Positions 1-17,441 are shown, counted from the stretch's first letter. The stretch is DNA of 64,000 nt from an uncultured Planctomycetota bacterium (GCA_963845755.1 CAWJTV010000027.1:96001-160000); one strand, 5' to 3'. Numbers and translations: made by a program. The notes: generated by a model not told the origin, from the sequence alone.

Positions 1-1529
1 CCGTAGGCGACGTCGATTGTGTAGGAACCGGGCTTCAGGCCGTGGATGCCGGGCTGGTTCGGCCGGCCATTCCAGGCCGTGGTCAGCGTGACGGTCCGGC
101 CCGCCTGGAGATGCTTCCATGTGGAGGCGGGGATGCGGCGGGTCCTCCGAAAGACCACCTGCGTGCCGTCCAGGACCGTGATCTGTTCGCGGGACTGGAC
201 CGACGCCGAGGCCGGCTTGGCCGCACCCATGCCCGTGATCCTCAGGCGGATGTGGACGCTCTCGCTGACCTGGTAATCCGCATGGTTCGTGGTCACCGTG
301 GAGTTGATCAACGGCGCGACCTGTCCCGTCGAGGACGAACCGTCACCCCCGGTCCCCGATGTGGACGTATTGCCGGACGACGACGCGCTCACGACCTGGA
401 ATGTGGCCGTATTGCCGTTCAGATCGAAGGCGTTGGAAATCTCAAGGGTGTAGGTACCCGGCACCGGGTCACCGACCGGCCACATCTGGGTCTGTGTCCA
501 GGATTGACCTGGCTGAAGAGTCGACCATCCTGCGAAGTACGGCCCGGGCAAGTTTTCCAGGTCCAAGCTCAGCGTGGGCGAAGGTTGATCGAACTCGAAC
601 CCGGTCTGTCCCATGGGGACCACTACGGGTTGGTCGCTCACGTTCGTCTCGGTGAAGGTCATCGTCACCGTCTGGCCGTCTTGATAGACGGGCTGATCCG
701 TGGTGACACGCGACACGATCGCCCCGGAAGGCGGGGGCGCGATCTGGAAGTCGGCGGTGAATTCGCCCGGAGCGGCCGGAACATCATAAACCTCCGCGAC
801 GAATTCACCTGTCAGGTTTTCCAGGGTGTAAGGACTAAAACCGGGTGGGTGATAGGTGTACTGGTTTGTGATCGTTTGCCCCGGGGTGATCGTCTCAAAG
901 GTCGGGCCGATCGGGTCCATTTCGGGCAGCTCGGGCTGACCGTTATGCACGATCTGGTAGAGGGGATTCGCGATCACGATCGTGATCGTCTGATCGGAGG
1001 TGTTCGTCTCGGTGTAGGTGAGCTGGACCGGTTGGCCCATCAGGTAGGTCGTCTGATCGGTCGTCAAGGCGCCCTGGAGCGGATCGGTGATCTGGAACGT
1101 CGCCGTATCTTCCTGCGGGGCATTGAGATTCGAGACCGTGAACGTGCCAAACTGGTTGACCGCCGCGTTCGTGTTGGCGCCTGGCTGGTAGAAGGTCTCC
1201 GGCATCGTGCCATCCCAGGTCGCCGTCTGGGACACGGACTGCCCCGGTTGAAGCGTCAACGAGGTGGGGGGCTGACCGGCGTTATCCGGGTTTGACTCCC
1301 AGAGCGGGCCATTCCAGCCCAGGCTTTGCTCGGAGACGGAGAAATCCGTCGGGCTGAGCGAGACCGTCACGGCCTGGTCGCCCGTGTTCGTCTCGGTGAA
1401 CGTGATCTGGATCGGCTGACCCACCTGGTAGGTCGTTTGATCCGTCGTCAACGAGTAAGAGATGCCCGACAGGAGACAGCGGCCTTCGAGTTCATCGACA
1501 CCCAAGGCCATCCGTGAGCGACGCATCAT
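1..1529 (-). CDS. Planctomycete exported protein with LExRxLL motif and about 4 tandem Ig-like/BsuPI-like repeats (3' end outside window)
   Basis: Hand translation from ATG 1529 gives MMRRSRMALGVDELEGRCLLSGISYSLTTDQTTYQVGQPIQITFTETN. The TTD..Y..GQ....TFTETN unit recurs. It is absent from the ORF track because no stop lies in the window; ORF 42..1295(+) is its antisense shadow. Confidence 0.8.
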   Translation of the reverse strand, partial: MMRRSRMALGVDELEGRCLLSGISYSLTTDQTTYQVGQPIQITFTETNTGDQAVTVSLSPTDFSVSEQSLGWNGPLWESNPDNAGQPPTSLTLQPGQSVSQTATWDGTMPETFYQPGANTNAAVNQFGTFTVSNLNAPQEDTATFQITDPLQGALTTDQTTYLMGQPVQLTYTETNTSDQTITIVIANPLYQIVHNGQPELPEMDPIGPTFETITPGQTITNQYTYHPPGFSPYTLENLTGEFVAEVYDVPAAPGEFTADFQIAPPPSGAIVSRVTTDQPVYQDGQTVTMTFTETNVSDQPVVVPMGQTGFEFDQPSPTLSLDLENLPGPYFAGWSTLQPGQSWTQTQMWPVGDPVPGTYTLEISNAFDLNGNTATFQVVSASSSGNTSTSGTGGDGSSSTGQVAPLINSTVTTNHADYQVSESVHIRLRITGMGAAKPASASVQSREQITVLDGTQVVFRRTRRIPASTWKHLQAGRTVTLTTAWNGRPNQPGIHGLKPGSYTIDVAY

Positions 1530-2214
1530 GGCTAGCCCCGTTCGGAAGATGTCTGGCAGGAGAGGAAGCCCCCTTTCGTCTAGTCGCAAATTGCCCCGAA
1601 GCTCGGCCTCATGGATCGAAAGACAAGCATTTTCGGTGAAGTCGAGATCCTTGGCGGCCCAGACGCGGGTGGTGACCCGGGATTTTGGAACGGAGGCCGT
1701 AAATCTTTTCCAAGCCAGGAGATCGATTTTCGTGGCTGGTTTCCCTTAACTCCTTAGATGGCTGGAACTTGCGCCGGACATCCAATGATCCCGGGTCACC
1801 ATTGAGGCGCGCCGCGAGTTTGATTGCTTCATTCTAATCGACCAATCGCCGCGGTCAAAGCGATGATGCAAGACAGCCGCAGCGCCTGCAAAAAGGTCTG
1901 CCCCTGACTCCCCTCGTGCCCCTAACTCCCGTCGGGGCTTGAATCCGCTGACCCTACGCAGGTCCTCAGCTTCGAGTCGATTGCGCCCGACAGGGAGATG
2001 GCGGCTCGAGCGCATGGCAAACCCGCCAGCCGGTCGGGACGACAGATCGATACTCCAAAGTTATGGGCGCATGACGTGGCGCGACGGTCGATCACCGTCT
2101 GCTGGGGACCAATAAGCGTCGGACGACAAAGGGGGCCAGGCTTCCTCCGAAGCCGCAACCGCCGCTATGATTGTGGTAGCGACGGTGGTAAGCAGGAGGG
2201 TCAGGAACAGCCGC

Positions 2215-2757
2215 ATGACAGTCCAGGGATCACCGGACGCCATCGAGCCGGACCAGGTCGTGGAAATCTTCGCGGAGTTCACGACGGCCGATGATCTGGC
2301 TCTGCGATTTCCGGCGGACGGATGCTACGCCCGGACACATCTTATGGTCCGGCGGCTGCTCGACCGAGGCTTGGCCCCGTTGAAGGTCTGGGCGTTTGCC
2401 GCCAGCGCCACGGATCCTCTTTGGACAGATACCTCCGACCACCCAGATGGGCGAGTCGAATGGCAGTATCACGTCGCTCCGGTTCTCGTAGTGGGGGGGC
2501 CGGCCGGCGACCTGCGAGAGATGGTTTTTGATCCCCTTCTCTTCGACCGCCCGGTTCCTGTCGAGGAGTGGCGAAGAGCGCTCCACGACACACCGACTCT
2601 GATACGAACGGCTCCTGGGGAACCGCCTCTACCCGCCCGCGGAGGGACCGGATACTGGCCCTGGCCGGATCCCCTCGAAGGGACCGACGTACATGCGCGC
2701 GAGACCTCGAAGACTACCGGACGTGGAACGCTTAGAGGGCCCGATTGCAGGGAGTAG
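2215..2757 (+). CDS. Protein-glutamine glutaminase (papain-fold deamidase) catalytic domain protein
   Basis: Motifs FPADGCYARTHLM, WQYHVAP and VFDPLLF match the Cys-His-Asp motifs of Chryseobacterium-type protein glutaminase. The start is 2215 or 2167. A 1-nt indel near 2705 is likely, giving an alternative end ETLEDYRTWNA*. Confidence 0.8.
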   Translation: MTVQGSPDAIEPDQVVEIFAEFTTADDLALRFPADGCYARTHLMVRRLLDRGLAPLKVWAFAASATDPLWTDTSDHPDGRVEWQYHVAPVLVVGGPAGDLREMVFDPLLFDRPVPVEEWRRALHDTPTLIRTAPGEPPLPARGGTGYWPWPDPLEGTDVHARETSKTTGRGTLRGPDCRE

Positions 2758-2761
2758 CGCC

Positions 2762-3403
2762 ATGGTTGAAGCACTGACGATCCGAACACGACTGCTGGTC
2801 GTTCGAGAGATTCAGGAAGACGAGGGCGATGTCGAACTCCGTTTCCAGCAGGGGAGCCACGGGCGCCTCGATCTCCATGAGGCGAACTCTGCGACCTATC
2901 TCCGACTCGCCCTGCGCAGTCACGAGCGCCAGCATCCCGTGGGCGTCACCTTCGGAGAAGGAGATACGATCGCGGAACTGATCCGCGCCGACAACGACGT
3001 GCCCCTCCAACTCTGGGAAGAGGAACCCGATCGAGTCCGGGTGCACTTCCAGGGCCACGACGGCGTTTTCTGCCTGAAACGCGACCATCCCGAGTTCACC
3101 CGAATCAGCATGCTGGTGGGTGATGCGATCCGGCAGAAGGTCCGAGTTTGGTTCGTCGCTCAGAAACCCGCCCTGGCGCTGCTGGATGTCCTGCCGGCCG
3201 GATGGGCGGTCGCCTCATCTCAAACTCACAACGGAGGCGGTTCTACGGCGGCAGTTGAGTTTGTCGATGGCCCTCTGGATGGCCTCAGGTTCGAGCACAC
3301 GCAGATCAACACGATCGCGAGGATCATGCCGGCATCTGGGGTAGCACTTCAGATCCGGGGCTTTGAACTGAAGATCGAGCAGCCAACGGACGACGGCCCA
3401 TAA
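2762..3403 (+). CDS. Hypothetical protein with two repeats resembling the protein-glutaminase pro-domain; candidate inhibitor/immunity protein
   Basis: GGGAG RBS precedes ATG 2762, directly after the glutaminase gene. Internal repeat: VELRF..GRL....YLRLA.RS.....PVGV versus VRVHF..GVFCL..DHPEF..I..LV.DA......VWFV. Confidence 0.6.
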   Translation: MVEALTIRTRLLVVREIQEDEGDVELRFQQGSHGRLDLHEANSATYLRLALRSHERQHPVGVTFGEGDTIAELIRADNDVPLQLWEEEPDRVRVHFQGHDGVFCLKRDHPEFTRISMLVGDAIRQKVRVWFVAQKPALALLDVLPAGWAVASSQTHNGGGSTAAVEFVDGPLDGLRFEHTQINTIARIMPASGVALQIRGFELKIEQPTDDGP

Positions 3404-3623
3404 GCCGATCGCGGCCCCGCCGTTTTGGTTTCCGCCCAAGGATCGGCCAACTGAAGCAAGAGAACAAGAAATAATGAAATCAGAATAACATTCGTCCAAT
3501 GATGTCAGTTCCCGAGGCCATTTGTCGCCGGGAGAAGAAAGAAACCAACACCCACTCTCAGCGGCCCGGCCCGCTGAGAGCGACCTTTGCATCCCCTGAA
3601 GCCGTTGTGGCGGGCAGGGTTCG

Positions 3624-3932
3624 CTACAGCGGATCGTTACGCAACACCACTTCGATGCCAAGGTGATGCTCGGTGTCATCCACTCGGACGCGCCATCCGT
3701 TCTCTTCGCGGATAGGCTCATAGTGGTCTCGCGTGTTGTCCGATCTCGTCCTATAGACAACCAGATTCGGTCCCTCGCGACCATCGCGCCTGGCTCCTTC
3801 GGTGCGGCGGAGCCACGTTCCCAAGAAAACCGCGAACCACCCGGTGCTCGCGTTTGCCTTAACGACATACTCACCGCGCGCTCCGAGACTTTTTTTCAAC
3901 CCATCCGCAACGCTTTGCGTCTGCATCGCCAA
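3624..3932 (-). CDS. Hypothetical protein or gene fragment
   Basis: 102-aa ORF with protein-like composition in a lower-GC stretch; no motif recognised. Confidence 0.3.
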   Translation of the reverse strand: MAMQTQSVADGLKKSLGARGEYVVKANASTGWFAVFLGTWLRRTEGARRDGREGPNLVVYRTRSDNTRDHYEPIREENGWRVRVDDTEHHLGIEVVLRNDPL

Positions 3933-4134
3933 GATACCATAAAGATGACCAACAAGACCGGAGCCGAAACTCGCATCGATCCCGGCTGGGGATTAATGAC
4001 CTGCCGCCCATCGATAGCCCGCAATTCCGCCGCGCTTTCCGGTAGACTGTGAGATATCCAAGGCGGCCGGTCATCGATCGGCGAGCAACGACGCGCGTTA
4101 CTCCATTGCTCGCGAGATCGACCGAAAGAATCGA

Positions 4135-4452
4135 TCAACCCCGGAACTTGGTCTTGGGGGCCTTTTCCACCAACTGGTGCAGGGTGTGCATGATGTTGTA
4201 GGCCGAGAGCTCGCAGAGCAGGTGCGTCACCTCTTCGTGGATCTCGTCGCCGAGCTTGGGCTCGACGGCCTTCATCAGCGCGACGACGCGGGCTTCCTGC
4301 TCCTTGAGTTCATGGGCCTCGATGCGGCCGTCGGCCATCGCGTCCAGGAACGTCCCGAGCCGTTCCGCGTACTGGCCGATCAGCGGCGTGTCGGCTGTCG
4401 CGTCCAGCCAATCGGTGCGATGCTTGCCTGCGGTGTCGGTCTTCTTGCTCAT
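4135..4452 (-). CDS. Small helical hypothetical protein (105 aa) with a TerB/EF-hand-like ADGxIxxxE motif; last gene of the PspA-AAA cluster
   Basis: MSKKTDT...MADGRIEAHELKEQE...KTKFRG, with strong GC3 bias. The upstream extension in the ORF track is translated repeat DNA. Confidence 0.75.
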   Translation of the reverse strand: MSKKTDTAGKHRTDWLDATADTPLIGQYAERLGTFLDAMADGRIEAHELKEQEARVVALMKAVEPKLGDEIHEEVTHLLCELSAYNIMHTLHQLVEKAPKTKFRG

Positions 4453-4516
4453 GGGGTTCGCCTCGTCTAGGTGATCGGATCTTCGTTCAGAGGATGTGAA
4501 AGGAGCGGGAAATCTT

Positions 4517-4579
4517 CGAGATTCCGGATTCGAGATTCCGGATTCGAGATTCCGGATTTCGAGATTCCGGATTCGAGAT
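4517..4579. repeat. Tandem repeat (GAGATTCCGGATTC) x about 4
   Basis: Read directly: gagattccggattc gagattccggattc gagattccggatttc gagattccggattc gagat. A related run lies at about 48043-48076. Confidence 0.9.
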
Positions 4580-4669
4580 AGAGCGAACGGAAAACCTGGG
4601 GCACACAGGACCAACATTTATTTTCTCTCTTGAATTTGTGCTTCTGAATCGATCTTCCACGTCTTTCGT

Positions 4670-6496
4670 TCACTCTTCGATCAATCGTCGGATCGCGGCC
4701 ATCCGTTCCTGGAGCTGGGCTCGCCCGTCGGGCCCGGCCACGCGCGCCTGCCACTCCTCGGGCAGGAAGGACCTCGACGTGCACTCCAGGACCGCCGCCA
4801 GCTCTTGCTTCTCCTTCTCCAGCCCCTGGGCGGAGGGGATGAAATCGTCGAGGGAACCGGCGAGATCCTCGCGGGTGATCGGCTCGCGTCCCTGGGTCAA
4901 CGCATGGCGCTTGGCGGCCAGCACGATACTCTCGATGTCGGCCCCGCTGAGGCCGCGGCCGGCGAGGTTCTCGGGCAGGGCGTCGGGGGTCAGGCTGGTC
5001 TTGTTCTTGCGGGCCATCGCCCGGATCATGAACCGCACCTCGTCCTCGTCTCGTGGGCTGAACAGGGGCAGATGGACCTCGGCGCGACCCTGGCGCTTCA
5101 GGTCGATCGGCAGGAAGTCGGGCCGGCTGGTCAGGAGCATCCAGATCAGCTTGCCCCGGTATCGGGTGTCGCCCATCTGGCCGGCGATCATCGAGAAGAC
5201 CCGGCTGGAGGTGCCGGAATCCCCCCCGGCCTCGCGGTTGCCCAGCGCCGCGTCGGCCTCGTCGATCACGATGACGACCGGCCCCATCGCCCGGAGTACC
5301 GTGAGGATCTGCTCGAGGTTCCCCTCGGTCTCGCCGACGTACTTCGACCGGAAATTGCGGAGCTTGACGCAGGGGATCCCCACCGAGCCGGCGAAGCATT
5401 CGGCCAGGTAGGTCTTGCCGGTGCCCACGGGCCCGCAGATCAGGTATCCCATGGGAGCGGCGTCGAGCCGGCCCTGACCGAGCAGCGCGGCGTCCTCGGT
5501 GAGCCGGCGCTTGATCGCGTCGCTGCCGACGAAATCGTCGAGCGTGTGCGGCGGCTCGACGAACTCGACCAGGCCGCGCGCCTGGCGCTCGATCAGCCCT
5601 TTCTTCAGCCGCTTGAGGCCCGTGGTATCGAGCTTCCGCCCGGACTGGGCGGCGGCGGCCAGCAGTCGCTCGAGATTCGTCAGGTTCAACCCGCTGGTCA
5701 GCTCGGCCAGTTGTTGCGGGGCGAAGTCGGCGAGGTTTCCCGTCTTTCCGTCTCGCTCATCGTATCCCTTGATGAACCGCTCCCGCGCCGCGATGTCCGG
5801 CATGGGGACATCGAGGGAAGCCACGTGCGCGCTGCCGATCAGCCGCTCGTTGATCTCGGCCAGTTGGTCGCACAGGAGGCAGAAGGCGATATTGTGCTGC
5901 TTGATGTAGGGGTTCTGGGCCCACGACAGGAGCCGGACCAGCCGCGTCCCCTGGGTCCCGGCCATCTGGCCCAGCTCCGCCGAGGGGACCAGGTACTGGG
6001 CGTATTCGAAGATCACGCCGATGCTGATCTGTTTGGCGGAGTCCTCTTCCATCAGGATCTGGCGGACGAGCTGATCGAGCAGGGCGAGGACCGCGTCGGG
6101 GTCGCGGGGCCAGGACTTGGGCTCGCCGATCCGCTCGACCGCCTTCACGACCATCCGGCGCAGGCGGTCGGCGTCGCGGCCGGCGAAGACGCGGAGTCCC
6201 TGGCTGAGGTCATAGCGAAAGACGACGTCCCAGGAGCCGAAGACCTGCGTGGCCAGGAAATCGGGCAGGCTGCCGTAACCCGCGACGGCGCCGCCGGCCT
6301 CGGTCTGCGGCACGAGGTCGTGGACGTTGCCGTGGAGCAGGAACACGCAGGTCGTGCCGGCAAAGTAGAGTTCGGCGAATTCGCGCGCCCAGACCGGGTA
6401 CCAGGCAGGCACGGCGCGCGCCGGCTCGCCGGGCAGCGTCGTGGACGGCGCTGCCGGCGAGAGGGGCTCGTTCGTTCTCGGCTGGGTTGAGCTCAT
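4670..6496 (-). CDS. Classical-clade AAA ATPase with an N-terminal degenerate P-loop-like domain
   Basis: Walker A GPVGTGKT, pore loop SKYVGE, Walker B IVIDEAD, SRH TSRPDFLPIDLKRQGR and lid GLSGADIE. The N-terminal half (FLLHGNVHD, VIFEYA) lacks an intact Walker A. Confidence 0.92.
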   Translation of the reverse strand: MSSTQPRTNEPLSPAAPSTTLPGEPARAVPAWYPVWAREFAELYFAGTTCVFLLHGNVHDLVPQTEAGGAVAGYGSLPDFLATQVFGSWDVVFRYDLSQGLRVFAGRDADRLRRMVVKAVERIGEPKSWPRDPDAVLALLDQLVRQILMEEDSAKQISIGVIFEYAQYLVPSAELGQMAGTQGTRLVRLLSWAQNPYIKQHNIAFCLLCDQLAEINERLIGSAHVASLDVPMPDIAARERFIKGYDERDGKTGNLADFAPQQLAELTSGLNLTNLERLLAAAAQSGRKLDTTGLKRLKKGLIERQARGLVEFVEPPHTLDDFVGSDAIKRRLTEDAALLGQGRLDAAPMGYLICGPVGTGKTYLAECFAGSVGIPCVKLRNFRSKYVGETEGNLEQILTVLRAMGPVVIVIDEADAALGNREAGGDSGTSSRVFSMIAGQMGDTRYRGKLIWMLLTSRPDFLPIDLKRQGRAEVHLPLFSPRDEDEVRFMIRAMARKNKTSLTPDALPENLAGRGLSGADIESIVLAAKRHALTQGREPITREDLAGSLDDFIPSAQGLEKEKQELAAVLECTSRSFLPEEWQARVAGPDGRAQLQERMAAIRRLIEE

Positions 6497-6543
6497 TCTG
6501 AACTTGGTCCTGTCACGGATAGTCGATCTCAGAACGGACCCGA

Positions 6544-6969
6544 TCATTCATTCACGCGGAGACGCGGAGACGCGGAGGGAGAAGGGATATAACCATTGAC
6601 GATCCGACGCAAACCTTCCTTGAGGGTCGCGCCACCGAAGTTGATCAGCAATCCGACCGGAAGGTTCAACAGCCGTAGATACGTCAGCAGTTGCTTCGAA
6701 TGGACTGGGGCGAGGTTCTCAACCGATTTCAATTCTACGATCACGAGGCCCTCGACCAGCAGATCAACACGCAAACCTTCGTCGAAGTGCAGGCCGTCGC
6801 ATTCGAACTCAACAGCCGCTTGTCGTGCAACATGCAGGCCGCGCCGTTCTAACTCCCGCGCCAGTACCATCTCGTAAACCGATTCCAGCAGTCCCGGTCC
6901 CAGAACACGATGCAGCTTCATGGCCGCATCCACGATTTCTCCCGTAATCTCATCGATCTCGATCATCAT
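6544..6969 (-). CDS. GxxExxY protein (PD-(D/E)xK nuclease-like)
   Basis: LGPGLLESVYE, RVDLLVE, VIVELKS, QLLTYLRL and GLLINFG motifs. True start is the MM at 6969. Confidence 0.93.
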   Translation of the reverse strand: MMIEIDEITGEIVDAAMKLHRVLGPGLLESVYEMVLARELERRGLHVARQAAVEFECDGLHFDEGLRVDLLVEGLVIVELKSVENLAPVHSKQLLTYLRLLNLPVGLLINFGGATLKEGLRRIVNGYIPSPSASPRLRVNE

Positions 6970-7042
6970 ACGGTTCTCACGCATCTCTGTGTGAATCGAG
7001 ATTCTGATGCGATTCTCTCCGCGTCTCCGCGTCTCCGCGTGA
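6552..7042. mobile_element. GxxExxY cassette bounded by perfect 26-bp inverted repeats TC(ACGCGGAG)3
   Basis: 6552-6577 TCACGCGGAGACGCGGAGACGCGGAG is the exact reverse complement of 7017-7042. Mobility is inferred. Confidence 0.65.
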
Positions 7043-7078
7043 GACGAGATCCTGCTCCGATTCTTCCCCACAGGAGAC

Positions 7079-7837
7079 TCAGATTTCAGGCAGCGGCTCG
7101 AGCGTCCGGGCCGCGGGGCCCAGCTCCTTGGCCGACTGCGACGCCTTGGTTGTCTCGGGCGTGACGAGTCCGGCCTGCTTCTCGAACTCTCGCAGCGCGT
7201 CCTCGGCCATCGTCTTCTCCACGGCGATGTCGCGCTGGATGTCTTCCAGGCCCTCGCCTGACATGTCGGCCGCGACCCGGACCCGAGCCCGGTTGCGGTC
7301 GATCTGCCCCTGGAGCTCCTGCTCGGCCTGGCCGAAGTCGGTGGTGACGTCGAAATGGAACTGGTTGGCGAGCTGGGCAATCTCCGCTTCGGCCCGGCTC
7401 ATCTTGAGGTCGGCGTCGTACTTGCTGATCTTGTGCTTCACCTCGTCGAGCTTCTTGACCGCATGCTGGATCTTCAACAGGTTGTTCTGATACGCCTGCT
7501 CGTGCAGGGCGAGTTGCCTCTCGTTCTCGGCCAGGTCGTCCTTGGCCCGCTTCAGGTCCAGCGCGAACCTGGCCGCCGTGTCGCGATCGCCGGCGTTGAG
7601 GTAGGCCTTGATCTTCGCCTCGATCAGGGCGACTTGCTTCCGCTGGCCCTCCACCTGGCGGAGCACCCGCTCGACCAGCGCACGATACTGCGCCAGGCCC
7701 TCGCGGCCCTCGCGGATCTGATCGACGGAGCGGTCGTACTCCAGTTGCATCTCGGCGATCGGGTCATAGCCCCGGATCGCATTGGCCAGCTTGTTGAATT
7801 GCGCCGCGATGGCGTTCCAGAGCTTACCCAGGATCAT
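7079..7837 (-). CDS. PspA/IM30 (Vipp1, ESCRT-III superfamily) protein
   Basis: 252 aa and all-helical. It has an N-terminal amphipathic helix (MILGKLWNAIAAQFNKLANAI), DP before the long hairpin, and the typical hairpin turn AYLNAGDRDTAARFAL. Confidence 0.85.
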   Translation of the reverse strand: MILGKLWNAIAAQFNKLANAIRGYDPIAEMQLEYDRSVDQIREGREGLAQYRALVERVLRQVEGQRKQVALIEAKIKAYLNAGDRDTAARFALDLKRAKDDLAENERQLALHEQAYQNNLLKIQHAVKKLDEVKHKISKYDADLKMSRAEAEIAQLANQFHFDVTTDFGQAEQELQGQIDRNRARVRVAADMSGEGLEDIQRDIAVEKTMAEDALREFEKQAGLVTPETTKASQSAKELGPAARTLEPLPEI

Positions 7838-7852
7838 GGTCGCCCCTCAGAA

Positions 7853-8055
7853 AGGATGAAGGATGAAGGATGAAGGATGAGTCAGAGCAGATCGGATTTC
7901 GCTTTCTGCCTTTCTCAAAGTCCTCCAGGGCGCATTGGCCTCTTTCACCCCAACAGATTCGGAATGACATGCAGCATGCCGCGAAGGCTGATTCTAGCCG
8001 AAGGGGAGCACGTTTTTCCACGAGGAGGTCCGGACGATTCATCCTTCATCATTCA
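7853..8055. repeat. (GGATGAA)n heptamer repeats in inverted arrangement around about 155 bp of spacer
   Basis: aggatgaaggatgaaggatgaaggatga at 7853-7880 and ttcatccttcatcattca at 8038-8055. Confidence 0.8.
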
Positions 8056-8070
8056 GATGAATCCTTTCCG

Positions 8071-11038
8071 TCACCAGGTCCCCTGTCCCGAGTCGCTCGA
8101 CCAGGTGCCGGCGCCGGTATCCGATTCGGGCTGGGGGACGCTCGGGGGCTCGACCGGGTCCGGGGGAGCCGAAGCCGCCTGGACGACCTGATCGAGGATG
8201 GCGCCGGCCGCGACCGCCGCGGCGGTGGCCCCGGCGCTGAGCGTCGAGCCGAACGGAGAGCCGTCGTGGCTGGCTTGGTAGCGTCGACGGTCGGCATCGG
8301 CCTGCATCTCCCGCCACGAGGCTTGCTGGACCGCGGCCTGATGGGCCTGGCGCGCATGCTGGACGGCCCCGCCGGCACATTGGATCGCCTGCTCGTACTC
8401 CTGGGCGTGGAGCAGTTGCTGGGCACGTTCCAGCGCGGCGTCCGCGCCGGAAGTATCCACGCTGACACCCATCGCGAAGTATCCTTGCGTCTGCTGGATC
8501 GCCCGGGCGGCGTCGGCGATCTCGGCCTCGGCCTGGCCGGCCAGCCGGATGTCCTCCCGGGCGAGGCGTTCGGCCTGCTCCAGGTCGTTGCCGGCATCGC
8601 GGACCGAGGCCAGCAGCCGGGTCCACTCGCCGCGCGACGTCGACAGGTCGAGCCCGACCTGGTCCAGCACCTCGGCGGCGGCCCGGAACCGCTGGTTGGC
8701 GGCGACCCGATCTTCCCGACGGCTGGACAGGAGTCTGGCGACGCGGTCGAGCTCCTGGCGTGCCCGGTCGTACTCCTCGCGCAACTGATCGTAGGTCCGG
8801 ACATCGGCCTCCGCCTGCGACTGCGCGATCGCCAGCTCCTCGAGGGCTTGCGACAACGCGCGGCCCACCGCCGACCAGTCGGGGCGGGATTCCCCGAAGC
8901 CGGCCAGGACCTCGTCCCGGGCGCGGAGGGCGGAGTCCAGGCTTCCCCGGGCGATCTCGCCGACGAGCGGGTCATGCTGGCGGAAGTAGCCCTCGACGCG
9001 ACGAGCGCGGGTCTCCAGCTCCCCGCGCTGCTTCTGGCATTCGGCCCGCGCCGCCGACAGAAGATTCAACTGCTCGCCCAACCCGGACATCAGGCGCAGG
9101 GCAATCTGTTGCTGCTGGGCGAGCTGTTCGAGCCGCTTCGCTCCGGCGAGGTATTGCTGAGAGCGGGCGGATGCCATCGTGGCGGCGTCCGCGGCCAGGC
9201 GGTCGAACGTCGCGACCAGGGCGCGCGTCTGGTCGAGGTTCCGCGCCACGGCCTGCCACGAGCTCGGCGCGAAGCCGCGCTGGAGCTCCTGGTGGTACGA
9301 CTCGGCCTGCGGGATCGCCGAGCGCAGGCGCTCGGTCTCCCGCTGTCGGCCCGCTTGTTCCCGCTCGCAGTACGCCCGGGCCTTCTGGACCTGCTCGACG
9401 ACGCTCCGGGCTTGATCGAGCATCGACCGCGCCGCGTCCAGGGCCTTGGCCGCCTCGTCGGGATTCCCCGCTTGCAACGAAGCCAGGGACTGTGCATGAA
9501 CCTGGTTCCCCTGTTCGAGGAAGGGATCCGGGTTCCCTCCTTCCTCGACCAGTTTGAGCCCCTGCGCCCGGTGATTGGCCACCTGCTGCTCGAGGCCCGC
9601 GAGCGCGGACTTGACCTGTTGCGCACCCTGGAACTGCTTCGCAACGCCCTCCAGCCGGCCGATTAGCCCCTCGGCCCGGGATCGCAGGGCCTCCAGTGCC
9701 GAGCCGGCGCCGATCGGGTCGGCCGTCAATCGCGCGCCGGCCTGGTCCGCTCCGGCGCCGATGGCCGCCTGGTCGTCCTCGTAGGGAGTCAGGGGCAAGC
9801 CCAGTTTCCGGACGGTTTCGAGCTGAGCCCCGATCCGGTCCTTGGCCTCGCCGAGGGCCTGGAGCAAGCCGCGCGCCGACTCGTGCGCCTGGTTGAGCCG
9901 GTCCATGTCCGCAGTGCAAGACCGGGCGCCCGTCTCGATCTCCTCGAACGCGCGGTTCTGCTCCAGCAGCGACTCGGCGTCGTCCAGCTTCTTCCGCTGG
10001 AGTGGCGAGATGACGCTGGCCGCGAGCTTCTGCGCCCGGTCGACGGCGTCCATGACCTGGAGCCAGCGATCCCAGAGCTTGGCCAGCGCGCCTTGCACGG
10101 CCTCATAGAGCGCCTGGGTCTCGCCGGTCAAGGGCGCCTGGAAATCCGGGTCGGTGGCCGGCAGGAGCTTGAGCCGCTCCTTGAGGGCGTCGAGTTGGTC
10201 CATGACATCGGTCGCCTTCGACCGGACCTCCTTGAACCGACTTGCCACCCGGCCCTTGAGCCGACGATGGGCCATCCAGATCAGGCCGACGATGGCCAGG
10301 ACCACCGCAATCAGCGACAGGCCGATTCCGAGGATCACCTCGCGGCCCAGCGATCGCCCCGTGTGTTCCGCGGGCATCGGCGTCTGTGCAATCACGCCAG
10401 GCTGCACGGTCCCCGGCCGATTGGACGGGACCGGTGGCGCGGGGGAAGTCTTGACCTCGGGCGCCGGCTTGGCCGCGACCTCGCGCGCGGCAACCCAGCG
10501 ATCGGTTTCCTGGAGCAGCGCGGCGATCGCCTCCGGATACTTCTCTTGCTTGGCGAGCTTGATGAACGTCGAGGAGCGCCCGACCAGGTCGCGCTGGATC
10601 ACATCACGATGAAGCCCCAGGTCTCGCAGGGCCGTCCCGGGATGAACGGCGATCTTGCGGTTTTCCAGGTCCACCAGGACGACGACCGACCGCTGGGGAT
10701 CCAGCGACAACCCCCGCGCCTTCGCCTGGTCGTGCCATGTCTCATACAGCGAATCCACGTACTTGATCTCGTCCGACGTACCGGGTCCCGACGAGCGCAC
10801 GATCGCCACGTAATACGTCTGCCGGGAGGATTTCTCCAGCCCCGCGATCTGTCCGGGCGAGCGCGGGATACCGATCGGGCACGCCCGCGACGTAGACCCG
10901 ACGGCCATCGAACGCAGGGAACGGCGTCTTGTCCTGCGCCCGCGATGGAGAACCGGCCAGCATCACCCCGAGAGCGATCCATGCGACCCGGCCGATCGGC
11001 CGAAATCGAACCCGGGTCGTCCGCATTGCCAACATCAT
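8071..11038 (-). CDS. Signal peptide + TPM domain + single TM helix + about 650-aa cytoplasmic coiled-coil protein (frameshift near 10855)
   Basis: ORF 10742..11038 supplies the signal peptide (WIALGVMLAGSPSRA-QD). A 1-nt shift joins it to ORF 8071..10908, which has TPM-like SVVVLVDLENRKIAVHPG...YPEAI, the TM VILGIGLSLIAVVLAIVGLIWM, heptad-rich helices and the tail GTWSSDSGQGTW. Confidence 0.82.
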
Positions 11039-11719
11039 GGAACCACACGGCTGGAGCGCCGTCCCAAAGATCGTGAACCTCGTACCCGAAGAGGGGATGT
11101 CCGCCCTTCCGACCGTGGTGGAAGGCCGACCCGTGATGATAACACGAGCCGCACCGTGTCGACGAGGATAGCGATTCCTCTTCGATCCGATCCCACGAGA
11201 CCGAGCCCGGCATCAGGGCGATCGCTGGAGGATCTCCGCCTCGATCCGCTGGCCGAGCCTCAAGGGTGTCGGTTCGAGCAAGGCGATCCGCTTCGGAGCC
11301 GCGAAGCTGCCGCTCACGTGGAATTGTGTCACCTGACACCGAGGGCAGGACGTCTGTGCTTCCGCGTGGCCTGCCGGTTCGGTGTTGCGCGGGCGGACCT
11401 TCCCGGCGATGGGGTGCACCACCTCGAGCGGCGGGTATCCCGATCGATCCCCGGGTGGAGCTCTATGGTCGTCTGCTGTTCCTGGGAGGGGATTCCGCCG
11501 CCTGAGCGACTATCGAGGCTTGCGGTTGAACGTCGTGCGTGGCTGAGATTGGCCGCCCAGCACGAGATCACGATCCGCATGACGCTCGTCGCGCAGGCGC
11601 AGAATCGTCCGACCATGGCCTTCGCGCGTTACCCGCGGCACGCGACCAGCTCGTGGTCCGCCGTGAGCTAAAATATTTATATTTATTAATGCATTCAATT
11701 ATTGAGTTAATCGGAGTCC

Positions 11720-14700
11720 TCAGCCGGTCTCCGTCAACGTCAAGTCGTGATTGTCCCATACCGGCTTCAAGGACCGAGCGCGCGGTGGTGCCAGGCCGAT
11801 CTCCCTGGTGAAGATGCCGGTGTACTCCGCGAAGGTCAAGATCTGGAAGCTGGCGCCGACGGCGGGCACGTAGTTGTCCAGCAGCGACACTTCCAGGGTC
11901 CCGGCCAGCGTGGCGATGCCCGTGATCGCGAGCCGGCCATACTGGTCGGGCCCTGCGATCCGGATGAGCAGCAGGCCGGCCGCCGTCTGCGTGTAGTTCC
12001 CCTGGATGGTCAGGGTTCCGAAGGGGTCGCCGGGCTCGACCGTGGCGGCATTGGTCACGTCGGCCTGGATCGTGCCGGCGCCGGTCAGGACGCCTCCGCC
12101 GAGGTTGACGTTGGCCGCGATGAGCAGGCCATCGACCGTGGTTGTCCCGGCCCACTGGTCATAATTGGCGCCGGTGGTGCTGAAGGTGCCGCCCGCGGCG
12201 ATGATCACGGCGCCGGCGTTGCCGAAGGGGCCCTGTGAGGTCACCGTGCCGCCGCTCGCGACCGTGACCGAGCCGCCGTTGACGACCTCCGTCAGCGTCA
12301 TCTGGCCGGCCCCGTTCTGGGCCACCGTGCCCAGGTTGTCGATCGGGCCGGTGATGGTACTGCTGGGATTTTCGCCGGAGAGCGTGATGCCCTGGTTCAC
12401 GATCACCGTCTGAATGCCGTCAATGAACATGGTGGCGCCAGCGCCGCTCAGATGGACGGTGGCGCTCTGGACGAGCGGGCCGACTGCGAGGGTACTGCCG
12501 GTGCTGTCGAAGAAAACCACGGTGGCGTCGGCGCCGGAGACGTTCAGGTCGGTGTCGAGGGTCAGCCCGTTGATTATAAAGATGTTAGCATCTGAACCCG
12601 ACATGTCCAGCGTGCCGTCCAGGGTCACTCCGCTGAGCTCACCATAGAAGGCCACCAGGTCGTCAGGGCCGTTCGTGGTGATCGTTCCCTGGTTGATTTC
12701 GCCGTTACAGATCAAGGGACCGGTGGAGGCGTTCAGGACCAGGCTCCCACGGGTAATCGGGTTGTCCGCGGGGCTGTTTTCGATGGTGCCAATCAGGTAT
12801 ACCGTGTAGTCGGACAGGTCGAGGTTGGCGCCGAGCTGGTGGAAATGATCCTCGAACTCGTCGGTGCTGAAGTCATCGCCCAGGTAGACGGTGGCGCCCT
12901 TGGCGATCGCCAGGGTGCCGGAGTTTGTCCAGATGTAACTCGGATTCGGCGAGTCGCTCAGGTAGGAGTTGCCCAGGCTCACCGTCGAGGAGGAATCCAC
13001 GTTGATCGTGCCCTGGTTGGTCCAGTTGTCGTACAGGAGCAGCGTGGCGCCCTGGGTGGCGGTGATGGTGCCGTCGGCATTGTTCTTCCAGGCGATGTCA
13101 GCGGGGAAGCCGTTGATGTCGTAGGACCCCTGGCTGTTGAAGAGAACAACGCCGCCGTTGCTAACCTGGATGGAGCCGTCATTGATGACCCCAGAGATGT
13201 CGAGCTCGCCGGCAACGTTCTGCTCGATGGTACCCAGGTTGTCGATCGGCCCTATGATGGCGCTACCGGATGGATTCCTCATTGGAAATGGTGATGCCCC
13301 GGGCCAGGGTCACCGTCGGGCTGGCCGCGCCGTCGAGACTGTTGTGATTATCGATGCCGGCACCACCGCCGTTCAGGTGAATGGTGGCATTCTGGACAAG
13401 AGGACCCACCGCCACGGTACTACCGTCGAGGAAGTTCAGGTCGGCGCCGTCACCGGAGAGGTACAGGTCGGTGTCGAGCGTCAGACCGCCCATGACACCG
13501 ACGACGGGATAAACCCCGGGATAAACCCCCGACATATCCAGGGTGCCGTCCAGCGTCACGCCGTCGAGAGTGCCCCAGTTCGCGATCAGGTCGTCCGTGC
13601 CGTCCGTGGTGATCGTCCCCCGGTCGATTTCGGCCGAGAAGGCGAAGATTCTGGACCCCAGGATCAGCGGGCCGGTCGAGGCATCCAGGGCCAGGATCCC
13701 GCCGGTGATCGGATTGTCGGCGGGACTGTTGTCGAGGGTCCCGATCAGATTGACCGTGTACTGGGACAGGTTGAGGTCGACACCCAGGCTCTGGAAGCCG
13801 TTCTCGTACTCATCGGTGGTGAAGAAGTCACCCAGGTTGATGGTGGCGCCAGGGGCGATCGAAAGCACTCCCGAGTTTTTCCAGATGTCGCGGGCGCCGG
13901 CAAGGTTGAAGGAGAAGTTGCCCAGGCTCACCGTGGAGGCGGCATCCACCGTGATGGTACCGTTGTTGGTCCAGTTGTCGTACAGGTTCAGCGTGGCGCC
14001 GGTCGCCGTGATGGAGCCGTTGGCGGTGGTACTCCAGTCGCCCTGAAGGGTCAGGCTCGTCGAGGCCGGCACGTTGACCGCGCCATCCACAACGACGCCG
14101 TCCAGGGTGCCGCCCGCACTTGTGGTGACGATGGGGGAGGTGCCCGTGATGGTGCCCGCGACGATTTCGCCGCCGGAGAGGTACAGGGGATCGGTCGAGG
14201 CGCCCAGGGTCAGGGTGCCACCGGTGGTCGGGTTGTCCGCGGGGCTGTTGTCGAGGGTCCCGATCAGATTGACCGTGTACTGGGACAGGTTGAGGTGGGC
14301 GCCGAGGTTCTGGAAGCCGCTCTCGAACTCGTCGGTCGTGAAATCATCGCCCAGGTTGACGGCGGCGTCGGGGGCGATCGCCATCGTGCCGGAGTTTTTC
14401 CAGATGTCGCTGGTGGCCGGCGAATCGCTGGCGTAGTTGGCCGGGCTGCCGAGGCTCACCGTCGAGGAGGCGTCCACGCGGATCATGCCATCGTTGGTCC
14501 ACTGGTCGTAGAGGTCTAACGTCCCGCCCTGGGTTGCCGTGATCGTGCCGCGAGCGTTGTTGATCCACGGTTGGCCGGGAACGAGGCCGATCGATGCACC
14601 AAAGAAACCTGTGAAGGCGACAGCGACCTGGCTGTCAACGGTGACGGTGCCGCCCTGGCTGACCTCGACGGTGCCGTCGTTGGCGAGCTCCACAACGGTC

Positions 14701-17258
14701 ATCTGGCCGTCCGTGTTCTGCTCGATCGTGCCCTGGTTGTCGATTGGCCCATAAACGCCGCTGCTGGTGCTCTCGCCGGAGATGGTGATGCCGCGGCCCA
14801 CGGTCACCGTCTGGCTGGGGTCGTTGTTCAGCAGTGCGTTCTGGCCGGTGTTGTTGAACAGGAAAGCACCGGCGCCGCTCAGGTGGATGGTGGCGTTCTG
14901 GACGAGCGGGCCCGCTTCCACCGTGCTGCCGTCGTTGAATTGCAGGTCGGCACCCGAGCCGGAGAGGTCCAGGTCGGTGTTGAGCGTCAGCCCATCAACG
15001 ACCGCCACGGTGGCCCCGTCCGCCGACATGTCCAGGGTTCCGTTCAGGGTCACGCCGTCGAGGGTGCCGCTCGCCGCCGCGAGGGCGGCGCCACCCGTGG
15101 TGGTGATGGTGCCGCCGTCGATGCGGCCGCCGTTCAGGGACCAGCTACCGGTGCTGCTGGTTTGGCCCGGCACCAGCGCCAGCGTTCGATGCCGGTTGTC
15201 CAAGGTGCCGATCAGCTCCACGATGTTGCTGTCCAGGTCGAGCGAGTCGAGGTTGTGAGAGGTGTCGGTGAGCCAGCCGCCCAGCTCGACGGTTGCGTCG
15301 TCGGCGCTGATCGTGCCGTGATTGACCCAGGCGTCGTTTTTGGCATCCGGATCACTCGCAGCCGCGTTCCAGTAATCGCCCAGGATGAGAGTCGAGCCAG
15401 TCGCGGCCGTGATGGTCCCTCTGTTGGTCCAACTGCCTTCCAGCTCCAGGGTCGAGTTGTCCAGCGCCTGGAGCGTGCCGTTGAGCACGCCCCCGTCCAC
15501 GATGCCGATCGCGGTAGGGGGGACCGTGATGGTTGTGCCCGAAGACACGCGGGCGCTCTTGAGCACGCCCCCCATCAGGTTGACGAGGTCGCCGGGCCTG
15601 TCCGCCTGGAACGTGCCCAGGGACCCGCCGCCGGATAGATCGACGGTGCCGGAGTCGAGGTTCAGCGTCACACCGCGGGCCGTCACCGTGAGGCTCCGAA
15701 TCGTGTCGTAGCTCGTGATGGCGTGGTTGACGACGGCGCCGGCGACGTCGATCACCACGTTATCGTCGGGGCCGGGCAGGGCGGATTCGGGAACGTTATG
15801 CCACGCGGGATCCACCCAGGACCAGTTGCCGGGGTCATCCCAGTTGCTGTCGCCCGCGTCGCCGGTCCAGTAGAGGGTCGCCGGGGTCGCGGGGCGGCTG
15901 TCGATCTTGACGAGATCGGGGATGAGGTACTGCGCGTTGGGGGTGCCGAGTCCGGTCACGAGATCGTAGCCGGGGCCGGCCGAGTAGCCATTGTCGCCCT
16001 GGGTGATGTCGTCGAAGGCACGCGGATCGGTCTGCGCGATCTGATAGAGCGCGGGCAAGAGCTGGGTGCCGCCGTCGAAGGTGTTCTCTCCCTTCGCGGC
16101 CCGCGCCTGGTCGGCGATGGCGATCAGGGCGGCCCATTGCGGGGCGCCGATGCTGGTGCCGCCGAACTGCCCCCAGTGGATCTCTGGCGGAGAGCTCAAC
16201 GAGTCGTAGATCGGGACGCCCGTGAGGGGATCGGCGTCATAGGCGACGTCGGGGTCGGTGCGGTAGATCGTGGTTTGGGTGACGGCGCCCTGCTGGTACA
16301 GCGGCTGGGCCTCGAATTGACTGACGCCGCCGCCGCTGGCGATGTACGGATTCGGGTTTACGGGGAGGTTCGCATCGCTGCCGAGGCTCCAGCCGACCTC
16401 CTGGGAGCGATCCGGGTTGCCGTTCTGGTCCGGGGGCAGCGTGGTGCCGCCGACGGCGATCACGTTGGGCGAAACGTTCTGCCAGGCCGGTGGAGCGCCG
16501 AAATCGCCGCTGGACGTGACAAAGGCGACACCCTGGTGGCCGGCGGGGGTGGTGTAAAGGCTGTCATAGGCGTCTTCATTGTTGAACTCGCCGCTGAGGT
16601 CGTAGCTCATGGAGACGACGCAGACGTTGGGCTGGCTGGCCGCGAACTGGACGGCCGTGTCCAGGTCGTTGGGATAGGGACTGTCGGCCTGGACCAGCAG
16701 GATGTCGGCGCCCGGCGCGATGGCGTGGGCCCATTCCACGTCGATGCTTTCCTCCACGTCCCAGCCCGAAGTGCCTGGCCCGGGGACGTCCTGGGGGCTG
16801 CCGCCGTACTGATTGACCACCTGGAGGAAGTGCGTGTCGGTGGCGTTGCCGGCGGCGCCGCCGATCTGGAAGGTCTCGTCGAACTGCTGCACGTCGCCGC
16901 GGATGTCCGGGTCGCCGAAGGCATCGACGATGGCGATGGTCTCTCCTTGGCCCGCCCGGTTCTCGTTCGAGATGCCGGGGACCTGGTCGAAGCCATAAGC
17001 GTCGCGGACCTGAGCCGGAGTGTAGCCGGTGGGGCCCGGCGCGTCCTGCGGCCGTGCTGGGACAAGGTTGAGGACGGCCGAGGACGAGGCGGAGGAACTC
17101 GCCGCCGGACTCGGGTGGCCGGGCGGGAGCTTGGGGAAGACGGGGGCGGCGAGCAGCCGGCGGTCTTCGAGTTGGTCGACGACCAGGCGAAGCCGGGTGA
17201 CCCGACGCCCGGTCTTGCTCCTGGGTTTCCTGGACCAGCCCTGGAATGGGGATGCCAC
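11720..17258 (-). CDS. Large exported S53 (sedolisin/kumamolisin-like) peptidase with a long beta-helix repeat region (frameshift near 13283)
   Basis: LEDRRLL motif, then S53 motifs EESIDVEWAHAIAPGA, SSGD, PDVA, GGTSIGAP and GYDLVTGLGTP, then G/T/N-rich repeats. GTG start at 17258 has an AGGAG RBS. The repeat ITxSxENPS..I.GPIDN spans the frameshift. Confidence 0.85.
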
Positions 17259-17441
17259 GGTGCTAGGCTCCTGGTTGGGACCGAAGATCGGGATGAGCAG
17301 TATGCCGGTTGCGTTCTGCGTGTCGTTGCCCGGCACATTCATAGTGCCGAACGGCTTGCCCGGGGCGATCAGCGCGGTGTTGATCACCTTGGCCTGAATG
17401 GTGCTGGTCCCGTTGACGTGGCTGATGACGTTCATCAACGA

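Follow-up and report, generated by a model that had tools for sequence, protein, structure and literature searches.

Does a bacterial PspA, a protein of the ESCRT-III superfamily, come with an ATPase of its own that could remodel or recycle its polymer? The question is raised by four genes at positions 4135-11038, minus strand, of a 64,000-nucleotide (nt) stretch of DNA from an uncultured Planctomycetota bacterium (GCA_963845755.1, CAWJTV010000027.1:96001-160000), the whole of which is called the window here. In the direction of transcription, they encode a protein with a TPM domain, a transmembrane (TM) helix, and a coiled coil; a divergent PspA/IM30 paralogue; a classical AAA ATPase; and a small helical protein. 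The first-pass annotation, which had proposed an ESCRT-III/Vps4-like membrane-remodelling operon, named all four genes correctly and placed them, together with the repeats and the inserted cassette between them, on the right strand and at the right coordinates. We take the locus to be the Isosphaeraceae-type form of a PspA-centered envelope module already predicted by comparative genomics. With slightly better than even confidence, we read it as a membrane module in which a dedicated tandem AAA ATPase remodels or recycles the PspA polymer, the small protein serves as a cofactor, and the TPM rod stands in for transporter, OmpA, and TM-coiled-coil partners.

Such a pairing bears on how PspA/Vipp1 polymers are taken apart in bacteria. 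According to the accessible part of a 2025 review (PMC7619361), a Vps4-like ATPase appears to be absent from bacteria, and Makarova et al. (2024, PMC10936438), in the part available, describe ESCRT systems as confined to archaea and eukaryotes. The remodelling idea itself is already in print, proposed from genome context by Ravi et al. (mSystems 2024, PMC11237479). In the accessible text of that in silico study, PspA is reported to co-occur occasionally with a protein of two AAA+ domains, the N-terminal one inactive; longer operons may add an ABC ATPase, a permease, PBPB-OmpA, and TM-Snf7 to this dyad, and ATP-dependent membrane remodelling comparable to that by Snf7/Vps4 is proposed for it. 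The same text lists the TPM plus coiled-coil protein YdjH as a conserved PspA partner and proposes a chaperone-like role for TPM, band-7, and AAA+ partners. Within its accessible portion, the main text has no occurrence of "planctomycet*", and the supplement names Planctomycetes only for a different, Vps4-like ATPase. The guess of the first-pass annotation that PspA-AAA neighborhoods might already appear in comparative surveys was thus right, the dyad being cataloged there. Its view of the gene set as uncharacterized holds for experiments, with no experimental study of a PspA-linked tandem AAA, or any on planctomycetes, found among open-access papers and bioRxiv, but not for comparative genomics, where the accessible text of Ravi et al. 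has both the PspA-tandem AAA and the PspA-TPM associations. What the locus adds is a core in the form of a three-gene unit that includes the small helical protein, an exchangeable membrane or periplasmic partner (the TPM rod here vs ABC/SBP-OmpA and TM-coiled-coil proteins elsewhere), and a system that is dispensable for most of the phylum. The family has cultured carriers, among them strains of Singulisphaera, Paludisphaera, and Aquisphaera, in which the proposal can be tested.

Conserved linkage of PspA, the ATPase, and the small protein

Relatives of the ATPase were sought in species-representative genomes. Of the 159 identified, the best 80, representing 79 distinct loci, were kept, and adjacency was counted over the loci with enough sequence. 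The PspA gene immediately precedes the ATPase gene, with both in one orientation, in 71 of 74 loci; the small gene immediately follows the ATPase gene in 71 of 73. This arrangement holds down to 55% ATPase identity. In 5 loci (L049, L059, L063, L066, and L078), the PspA stop and the ATPase start overlap by 4 nt, which points to translational coupling. The conserved core is therefore PspA-ATPase-small protein, and a PspA nearly always encoded with its own threading-type AAA ATPase makes that ATPase the obvious candidate for the missing energy-dependent step in the dynamics of bacterial PspA.

The link between PspA and the ATPase extends beyond these loci. For 20 much more divergent ATPases from a sample of the phylum, with N-terminal domains 23-33% identical to that of the window in A4, a same-strand PspA-profile match was identified in 12 cases in the sequence retrieved around the gene, on most sides some 7 to 8 kb, and in 5 of these it adjoins the ATPase; the small protein was found beside none of the 20. 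Among the 5 genomes of the window's own family that carry the ATPase, 3 (G415, G416, and G417) have a PspA-like gene beside it, 1 (G401, of the same genus as the source) has the two genes on different contigs, and 1 (G412) has no PspA at E<=1e-5. The expectation of the first-pass annotation that the genes stay together in relatives is thus borne out for the three-gene core, and for the PspA link even in divergent loci, and fails for the TPM gene and hence for the four genes as a unit.

On the linkage counts alone, chance adjacency is already very unlikely. Accidental neighbors without a common function would be compatible with the wide spacers, the foreign cassette, and the split locus of the same-genus genome described below. 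Against this stand the flanking of the ATPase by both genes in nearly all loci counted, down to 55% identity, and the recurrence of PspA in 12 of the 20 divergent loci, although a search of the 14.3-Mb genome with PF04012 gave 2 matches in all. We give next to no credence to coincidence.

A tandem AAA ATPase with a degenerate first domain

The ATPase gene (4670-6547, minus strand) encodes 625 amino acids (aa). Residues 331-625 (4670-5557, minus strand) comprise an active classical AAA domain with its lid and a C-terminal helical extension (PF00004, E 2.8e-22). We identified Walker A (GPVGTGKT, residue 372), Walker B (VIVIDE, residue 425), KYVG inside the pore loop SKYVGE (residues 401-406), and RQGR (residues 485-488), the last probably providing the arginines of the second region of homology, as judged from the motif. 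Exactly one Walker A is present in each of 52 full-length ATPases, and its positions, like those of Walker B, KYVG, and RQGR, are invariant across the 52 sequences, in agreement with the earlier description of a classical AAA ATPase with the pore loop SKYVGE and an intact second region of homology. Walker A, VIVIDE, KYVG, and RQGR are shared throughout the classical clade and do not mark a protein as Vps4.

The protein had, however, been taken for a single-domain AAA ATPase of the Vps4 kind, and Foldseek and VIA identified two AAA-fold domains. Residues 45-330 (5558-6415, minus strand) form a D1-like degenerate AAA-fold domain (the N-domain) that matched no Pfam family even at E<=10, has no Walker A in any of 46 sequences, and carries a conserved HGNVHD motif. 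In the AlphaFold2 (AF2) model of the ATPase (mean pLDDT 80.8, pTM 0.73), residues 1-44 are predicted to be disordered. Foldseek aligned the model with D1-D2 chains of p97/Cdc48 over 542-630 columns (E about 1e-15 to 1e-14), and VIA aligned residues 50-324 with the AAA domain of PAN (3h4m_A; Z 13.4, root-mean-square deviation [rmsd] 3.8, 214 aligned) and residues 45-486 with NSF D1-D2 (6mdn_A; Z 14.2, rmsd 5.4, 376 aligned); both programs also gave alignments to Rix7 D1-D2. An hhalign comparison of the N-domain with the C-terminal domain was weak (E 0.006, probability 6%), yet it kept Walker B, sensor 1, and the lid in register. In build, the ATPase is therefore p97/NSF-like and of type II; its first AAA domain is dead, and it has no MIT domain.

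Sequence comparison of the active domain pointed the same way. The nearest Protein Data Bank (PDB) chains were VAT, Cdc48, p97 (D2), AFG2, and Rix7 (E 7e-32 to 1e-27); FtsH was also among the PDB matches (1.7e-17), and no Vps4 chain was among the best 60 of 262. The order of NCBIfam models was CDC48 (65.6 bits), PAN, FtsH, IteA, and CdvC (42 bits), all far under their cut-offs. Structural comparison of the active large subdomain ended in a tie between Vps4, FtsH, PAN, and p97 D2 (Z 13.2-14.3), and structure therefore gives no placement within the clade. With no MIT domain, an N-terminal 280 residues that have a degenerate AAA fold, and 42 bits against a CdvC cut-off of 650, the label Vps4-like had to be dropped: the ATPase works on the Vps4 principle at most and lies outside the Vps4 family.

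The N-domain family is large. Its profile, searched among 1.84 billion entries, matched 2,909 cluster representatives at E<=1e-3, 1,764 at E<=1e-10, and 435 at E<=1e-30. In relatives of 818-856 aa (P0001, P0006, P0009, and P0082), the degenerate domain is duplicated ahead of the active AAA domain. Atlas rows for the N-domain name Acidobacteriota, Actinomycetota, and Pseudomonadota, which we note as leads only. Some loci carry the labels Deltaproteobacteria, Binatia, or Acidimicrobiales, and on these labels a spread beyond the phylum is at most a possibility.

A divergent PspA paralogue

The gene upstream of the ATPase (7079-7837, minus strand) encodes a 252-aa protein that matched PF04012 over model positions 1-206 of 220 (E 4.7e-7, 30.1 bits). 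All 47 aligned orthologues matched the same model at E<=1e-3 (best 1.5e-15), and 2 of 5 orthologous copies in the genomes of relatives exceeded its cut-off (G416, 40.7 bits; G417:C226, 34.0 bits). A phmmer comparison with Synechocystis Vipp1 (7o3w) gave a weak match over residues 5-234 (E 0.026), and hhalign against four canonical PspAs kept 193 columns in register (E 3.5e-4, probability 37%). The same genome encodes a canonical PspA on another contig (G000:C33:56573-57226; 125 bits to PF04012), adjoining a predicted membrane protein, which makes the AAA-linked copy the second paralogue, and a very divergent one. Judged by its sequence, the 252-aa protein is thus probably a divergent member of the PspA family. 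Past the core, its tail (KELGP) retains an invariant L-G-P in the orthologue alignment, and this conserved tail may be a docking motif for the ATPase.

The small helical protein

Directly downstream of the ATPase lies a small gene (4135-4452, minus strand) encoding 105 aa. The first-pass annotation had placed its start at 4617, but the 49 aligned orthologues all start near 4452, which we take as the true start; the 160-aa open reading frame (ORF) ending at 4617 is an artefact, because the longer frame reads through a 14-nt tandem array. The AF2 model has three helices (pLDDT 75), and the C-terminus is conserved in the 49-sequence alignment. The protein belongs to no Pfam or NCBIfam family, Foldseek of the model against the PDB returned nothing at E<=10, and the best E of its profile against the PDB was 0.11. 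A wide VIA search gave generic helical hairpins only, with a best Z of 5.9 that is under the meaningful level for helical models. Its look-alikes in the Atlas are unnamed planctomycete clusters only. An MIT-like or TerB/EF-hand-like adaptor was considered and is unsupported, no MIT- or TerB-like fold being among the matches listed.

The TPM gene and its counterparts in other planctomycetes

A TPM gene lies directly upstream of the triad in 22 of 30 loci with an ATPase at least 66% identical to that of the window and in 0 of 32 below 66%; in 4 of the 8 close loci without a direct upstream copy, it lies elsewhere in the locus. The TPM gene is thus a lineage-specific addition, limited to the close relatives of the window.

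In the window, the gene is not one open frame, as had been assumed. A 5' piece (10742-11038, minus strand) encodes the signal peptide, with a basic N-region and then a hydrophobic stretch in its translation, and the first residues of the TPM domain. It is in a different frame from the remainder, a 945-aa ORF (8071-10908, minus strand) encoding the TPM domain, a proline-rich linker, one TM helix, the coiled coil, and a low-complexity tail. In tblastn, the alignments of seven intact orthologues (963-1026 aa) begin in frame -1, through the signal peptide and the first part of the TPM domain, and change to frame -2 at about 10848-10859 (minus strand), where a short G/C run is one base longer in the window than in its relatives. 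The same-genus genome has one base fewer in this run, and a 93% identical soil-metagenome contig leaves out 1 letter at 10854; the soil-metagenome contigs matching the locus were short pieces with small shares (0.18 and 0.02). The same-genus orthologue, intact at this site, is broken about 2.4 kb into the gene. An assembly error is a plausible cause of the frameshift, because many related metagenome-assembled genomes (MAGs) hold fragmented copies of the gene.

The TPM part of the window, itself split by the frameshift, scored 18.3 bits against PF04536 (cut-off 22.1), and all 5 full-length orthologues compared exceeded the cut-off (24.7-37.8 bits). From the translation, in which the hydrophobic helix is followed by basic residues, the TPM domain is predicted to lie outside and the coiled-coil rod of about 700 aa in the cytoplasm. 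The rod gave a sub-threshold match to the EzrA model (21.4 bits; cut-off 39.6), as did those of 3 of 5 orthologues (29.7-37.7 bits), and these matches may reflect coiled-coil composition alone.

In the distant group of loci, the triad is followed by genes for an SBP-OmpA fusion, an ABC permease, an ABC ATPase, and a coiled-coil protein with 2 TM helices (21 of 29 loci), and a VWA protein is also encoded in 10 of the 29. None of the SBP-OmpA, ABC, TM-coiled-coil, or VWA genes was identified in 29 close loci or within the 64-kb window. These neighborhoods, along with the chaperone-like role that the accessible text of Ravi et al. proposes for TPM, band-7, and AAA+ partners, would suit an assembly chaperone as envisaged by those authors. 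PspA and the ATPase would then build or maintain, with their membrane partners (the TPM-coiled-coil protein here; SBP-OmpA, ABC, and TM-coiled-coil proteins elsewhere), a trans-envelope complex whose real output is solute transport or wall tethering, and PspA recycling would be secondary. However, the lineage of the window has lost the whole transporter part and still keeps the triad, and the triad therefore works without the transporter. We consider the assembly of a trans-envelope complex a rather improbable primary role.

Proposed mechanism and points against it

In the mechanism that we favor, the divergent PspA would form membrane-bound assemblies. The classical AAA ATPase, as a hexamer whose D1-like ring is inactive and whose D2-like ring is active, would thread or pull PspA subunits, leading to disassembly or remodelling of the assembly, and it may engage PspA via the conserved C-terminal tail. 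The 105-aa helical protein would act as a cofactor or adaptor. In this lineage, the TPM-TM-coiled-coil protein would take the place of membrane anchor and periplasmic sensor, which in other planctomycetes would be held by the SBP-OmpA protein, the ABC transporter, and the TM-coiled-coil protein. Sensing by the TPM domain and recruitment of PspA by the rod, both put forward in the first-pass annotation, are hypothetical, as is disassembly by the ATPase. We infer the polymerization of this PspA, the contacts between the proteins, the direction in which the ATPase acts, and the roles of the small and TPM proteins from the gene identities, domain architecture, catalytic motifs, and linkage described above. 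A complex prediction for ATPase residues 45-625, the small protein, and PspA (score 0.12, mark 0.32, without controls) speaks neither for nor against binding.

Several observations weigh against this reading. The same-genus genome splits the locus, with TPM-PspA inside a 529-kb contig and ATPase-small protein inside a 316-kb contig (G401:C33 and G401:C12, both at internal positions), and in the window itself, a foreign cassette lies in the 531 nt that separate PspA from the ATPase; co-transcription is therefore not required. The TPM gene is frameshifted in the window, and its same-genus orthologue is broken at a different place. The PspA paralogue falls under the Pfam cut-off for PF04012 (30.1 vs 33.9 bits), its 47-orthologue profile matched no PDB chain at E<=0.01, and BLASTP against the canonical PspA of its own genome was not significant (E 4.9). 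Fusions of the N-domain to PspA or the small protein were identified in 0 of the best 150 of the 2,909 N-domain relatives. Finally, linkage alone fits action of the ATPase on PspA and action of PspA on the ATPase alike.

This last point gives room to an alternative in which the PspA paralogue, instead of being the substrate of the ATPase, regulates it or serves as its adaptor, with PspF-type logic reversed. PspA would keep the ATPase inactive or bring it to damaged membrane, and the ATPase would then extract or unfold other proteins, including membrane proteins. The conserved linkage fits this equally well, and in E. coli, according to the accessible part of PMC7619361, the AAA+ protein PspF is bound and inhibited by PspA. 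In one representative, P0066, a relative of the N-domain is fused to an FtsH-type AAA domain with an M41 peptidase, which suggests that the N-domain can serve general protein quality control; P0066 is, however, a single representative. PspF is moreover described in the available text of PMC11237479 as an NtrC-type enhancer-binding AAA+ activator of transcription with a helix-turn-helix (HTH), and it has no classical AAA threading pore loop; the conserved core of our locus encodes no other candidate substrate. We regard regulation of the ATPase by PspA as unlikely, and retain remodelling of PspA by the ATPase as the favored reading.

Distribution in the phylum

In the phylum sample, the ATPase N-domain was identified in 63 of 401 genomes; among the 243 of high quality, 29 had it. 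Within the family to which the window belongs, it was identified in 5 of 18 genomes. Some of the family genomes are 60-80% complete, and 3 of the 6 that are at least 90% complete are also without the N-domain. Such a patchy distribution marks the system as accessory and argues against a core role in division. Most of the phylum does without the system, which is thus not the planctomycete division machine.

The first-pass annotation had connected the locus to the lack of FtsZ and to the invaginated membranes of planctomycetes. A division or endomembrane machine of this kind could draw on the division of some archaea by ESCRT-III with Vps4, noted in the accessible part of PMC7619361, and on the sub-threshold EzrA matches of the TPM rod. 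These matches perhaps reflect coiled-coil composition only, the TPM gene is frameshifted in the window, and the counts above leave the link to division weak. We consider such a role very improbable.

The source assembly measures 14.27 Mb in 49 contigs (completeness 87.9%, contamination 3.3%) and the same-genus genome 13.1 Mb, both large relative to the other sampled genomes of the family (5.6-10.8 Mb).

Spacers, inserted cassette, and flanking genes

The spacers of the locus measure 233 nt between the TPM gene and PspA, 531 nt between PspA and the ATPase, and 217 nt between the ATPase and the small gene. A 7-nt tandem repeat (7857-7883) immediately precedes the PspA start and recurs in inverted form at 8036-8055, and the 14-nt tandem repeat occupies 4515-4579 in the spacer between the ATPase and the small gene. 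Within the 64-kb window, the exact 14-nt and 7-nt arrays and the 8-nt array of the cassette occur at this locus only; look-alikes of the spacer arrays were seen at dozens of dispersed places in the same-genus genome. One promoter-like site was identified on the minus strand (8020-7991; chance expectation 0.7), and a terminator scan gave 2 terminator-like sites, with 4.4 expected by chance. An Rfam search of window positions 1-14000 gave no match, and PADLOC defense models gave generic matches only (IetA, 53 bits, on the AAA domain; LmuB/JetC, about 20 bits, on the coiled coil).

The gene between PspA and the ATPase (6544-6966, minus strand) encodes a 140-aa protein of the GxxExxY/PD-(D/E)XK type (PF13366, PDDEXK_3, E 2.5e-38; TIGR04256, E 3.7e-39) and lies outside the system. 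It is flanked by 29-nt inverted repeats of tandem 8-nt units (left, 7014-7042; right, 6552-6580) that are 97% complementary, the right one overlapping the last codons of the gene and encoding the last residues of the protein. The stop codon overlaps the first ATG of the ATPase ORF in a 4-nt ATGA. The cassette was identified in 0 of 79 related loci, and the same-genus genome has a homologue with 83% identity on a third contig. The whole resembles a small mobile cassette inserted between PspA and the ATPase.

Beyond the four genes, positions 11720-17438 (minus strand) hold two very large ORFs (520 and 1391 aa) with Gly/Thr/Asn repeats and long internal repeats in common, neither matching Pfam at E<=0.001. 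Positions 2167-2757 (plus strand) encode a 196-aa protein with a Gln_deamidase_2 domain (PF18626, E 1.1e-24) that is unrelated to the PspA locus.

Comparison with known systems

The system resembles ESCRT-III/Vps4 and the archaeal CdvB/CdvC in that a gene of the ESCRT-III superfamily lies beside one for a classical AAA ATPase with a threading pore loop, and in the conserved C-terminal tail. Unlike Vps4 and CdvC, the ATPase of the window has no MIT domain and has two AAA-fold domains instead of one, and it scored 42 bits against the 650-bit cut-off of the CdvC equivalog NF041006. A bolder form of the favored reading, which we put forward tentatively and hold to be possible but doubtful, is a bacterial recycling machine for an ESCRT-III-type polymer that evolved independently of Vps4. 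In it, a p97-like tandem AAA ATPase with a dead first ring and an adaptor of about 100 aa would strip PspA via its tail. In Isosphaeraceae, the machine would have exchanged a wall-tethered ABC/SBP-OmpA sensor for a periplasmic TPM domain carried by an EzrA-like TM rod of 700 aa, which would place PspA on the cytoplasmic membrane.

With the type II AAA ATPases (p97/Cdc48/VAT, NSF, Rix7, and AFG2/Drg1), the protein shares the tandem AAA fold and the best sequence matches of its active domain. In contrast to p97/Cdc48/VAT, its D1 has no Walker A (0 of 46) and there is no double-psi-barrel N-domain; the score against the CDC48 family model TIGR01243 was 65.6 bits, far from the cut-off of 802.65. 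The haloarchaeal "Halo_adaptin" loci, as described in the accessible part of PMC10936438, are similar in placing an MIT-less Vps4-like ATPase downstream of a protein with weak similarity to PspA, but that ATPase is archaeal and has a VAT-type N-domain; the two families were set side by side by description only.

Among bacterial systems, E. coli PspA and PspF are likewise a PspA paired with an AAA+ protein, functionally in E. coli and as judged from genes alone in the window; unlike PspF, the ATPase of the window is a classical AAA protein, and searches of Pfam and NCBIfam found no DNA-binding domain in it. The pspA-ydjGHI operon of Bacillus subtilis (samGHI) includes the TPM protein YdjH, and it differs from the locus of the window, where the rod measures about 700 aa and an AAA ATPase is present. 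No homologue of the SPFH protein YdjI or of YdjG was seen in the flanks of the locus in the window.

The match to the type of Ravi et al. was made by architecture and context, with the exemplars AEY64320.1 and CKH37208.1 compared by the descriptions in the accessible text only. Like the dyad described there, the ATPase of the window combines a Walker-A-less AAA fold with an active classical AAA domain and adjoins PspA, and the distant planctomycete loci with SBP-OmpA, permease, ABC, and TM-coiled-coil genes (21 of 29) resemble the long operon of the same source. The lineage of the window departs from that long operon in having no transporter part (0 of 29), with a TPM-TM-coiled-coil gene upstream instead (22 of 30), and from the dyad in having, at loci of the window type, a helical protein of about 100 aa as a fixed third member.

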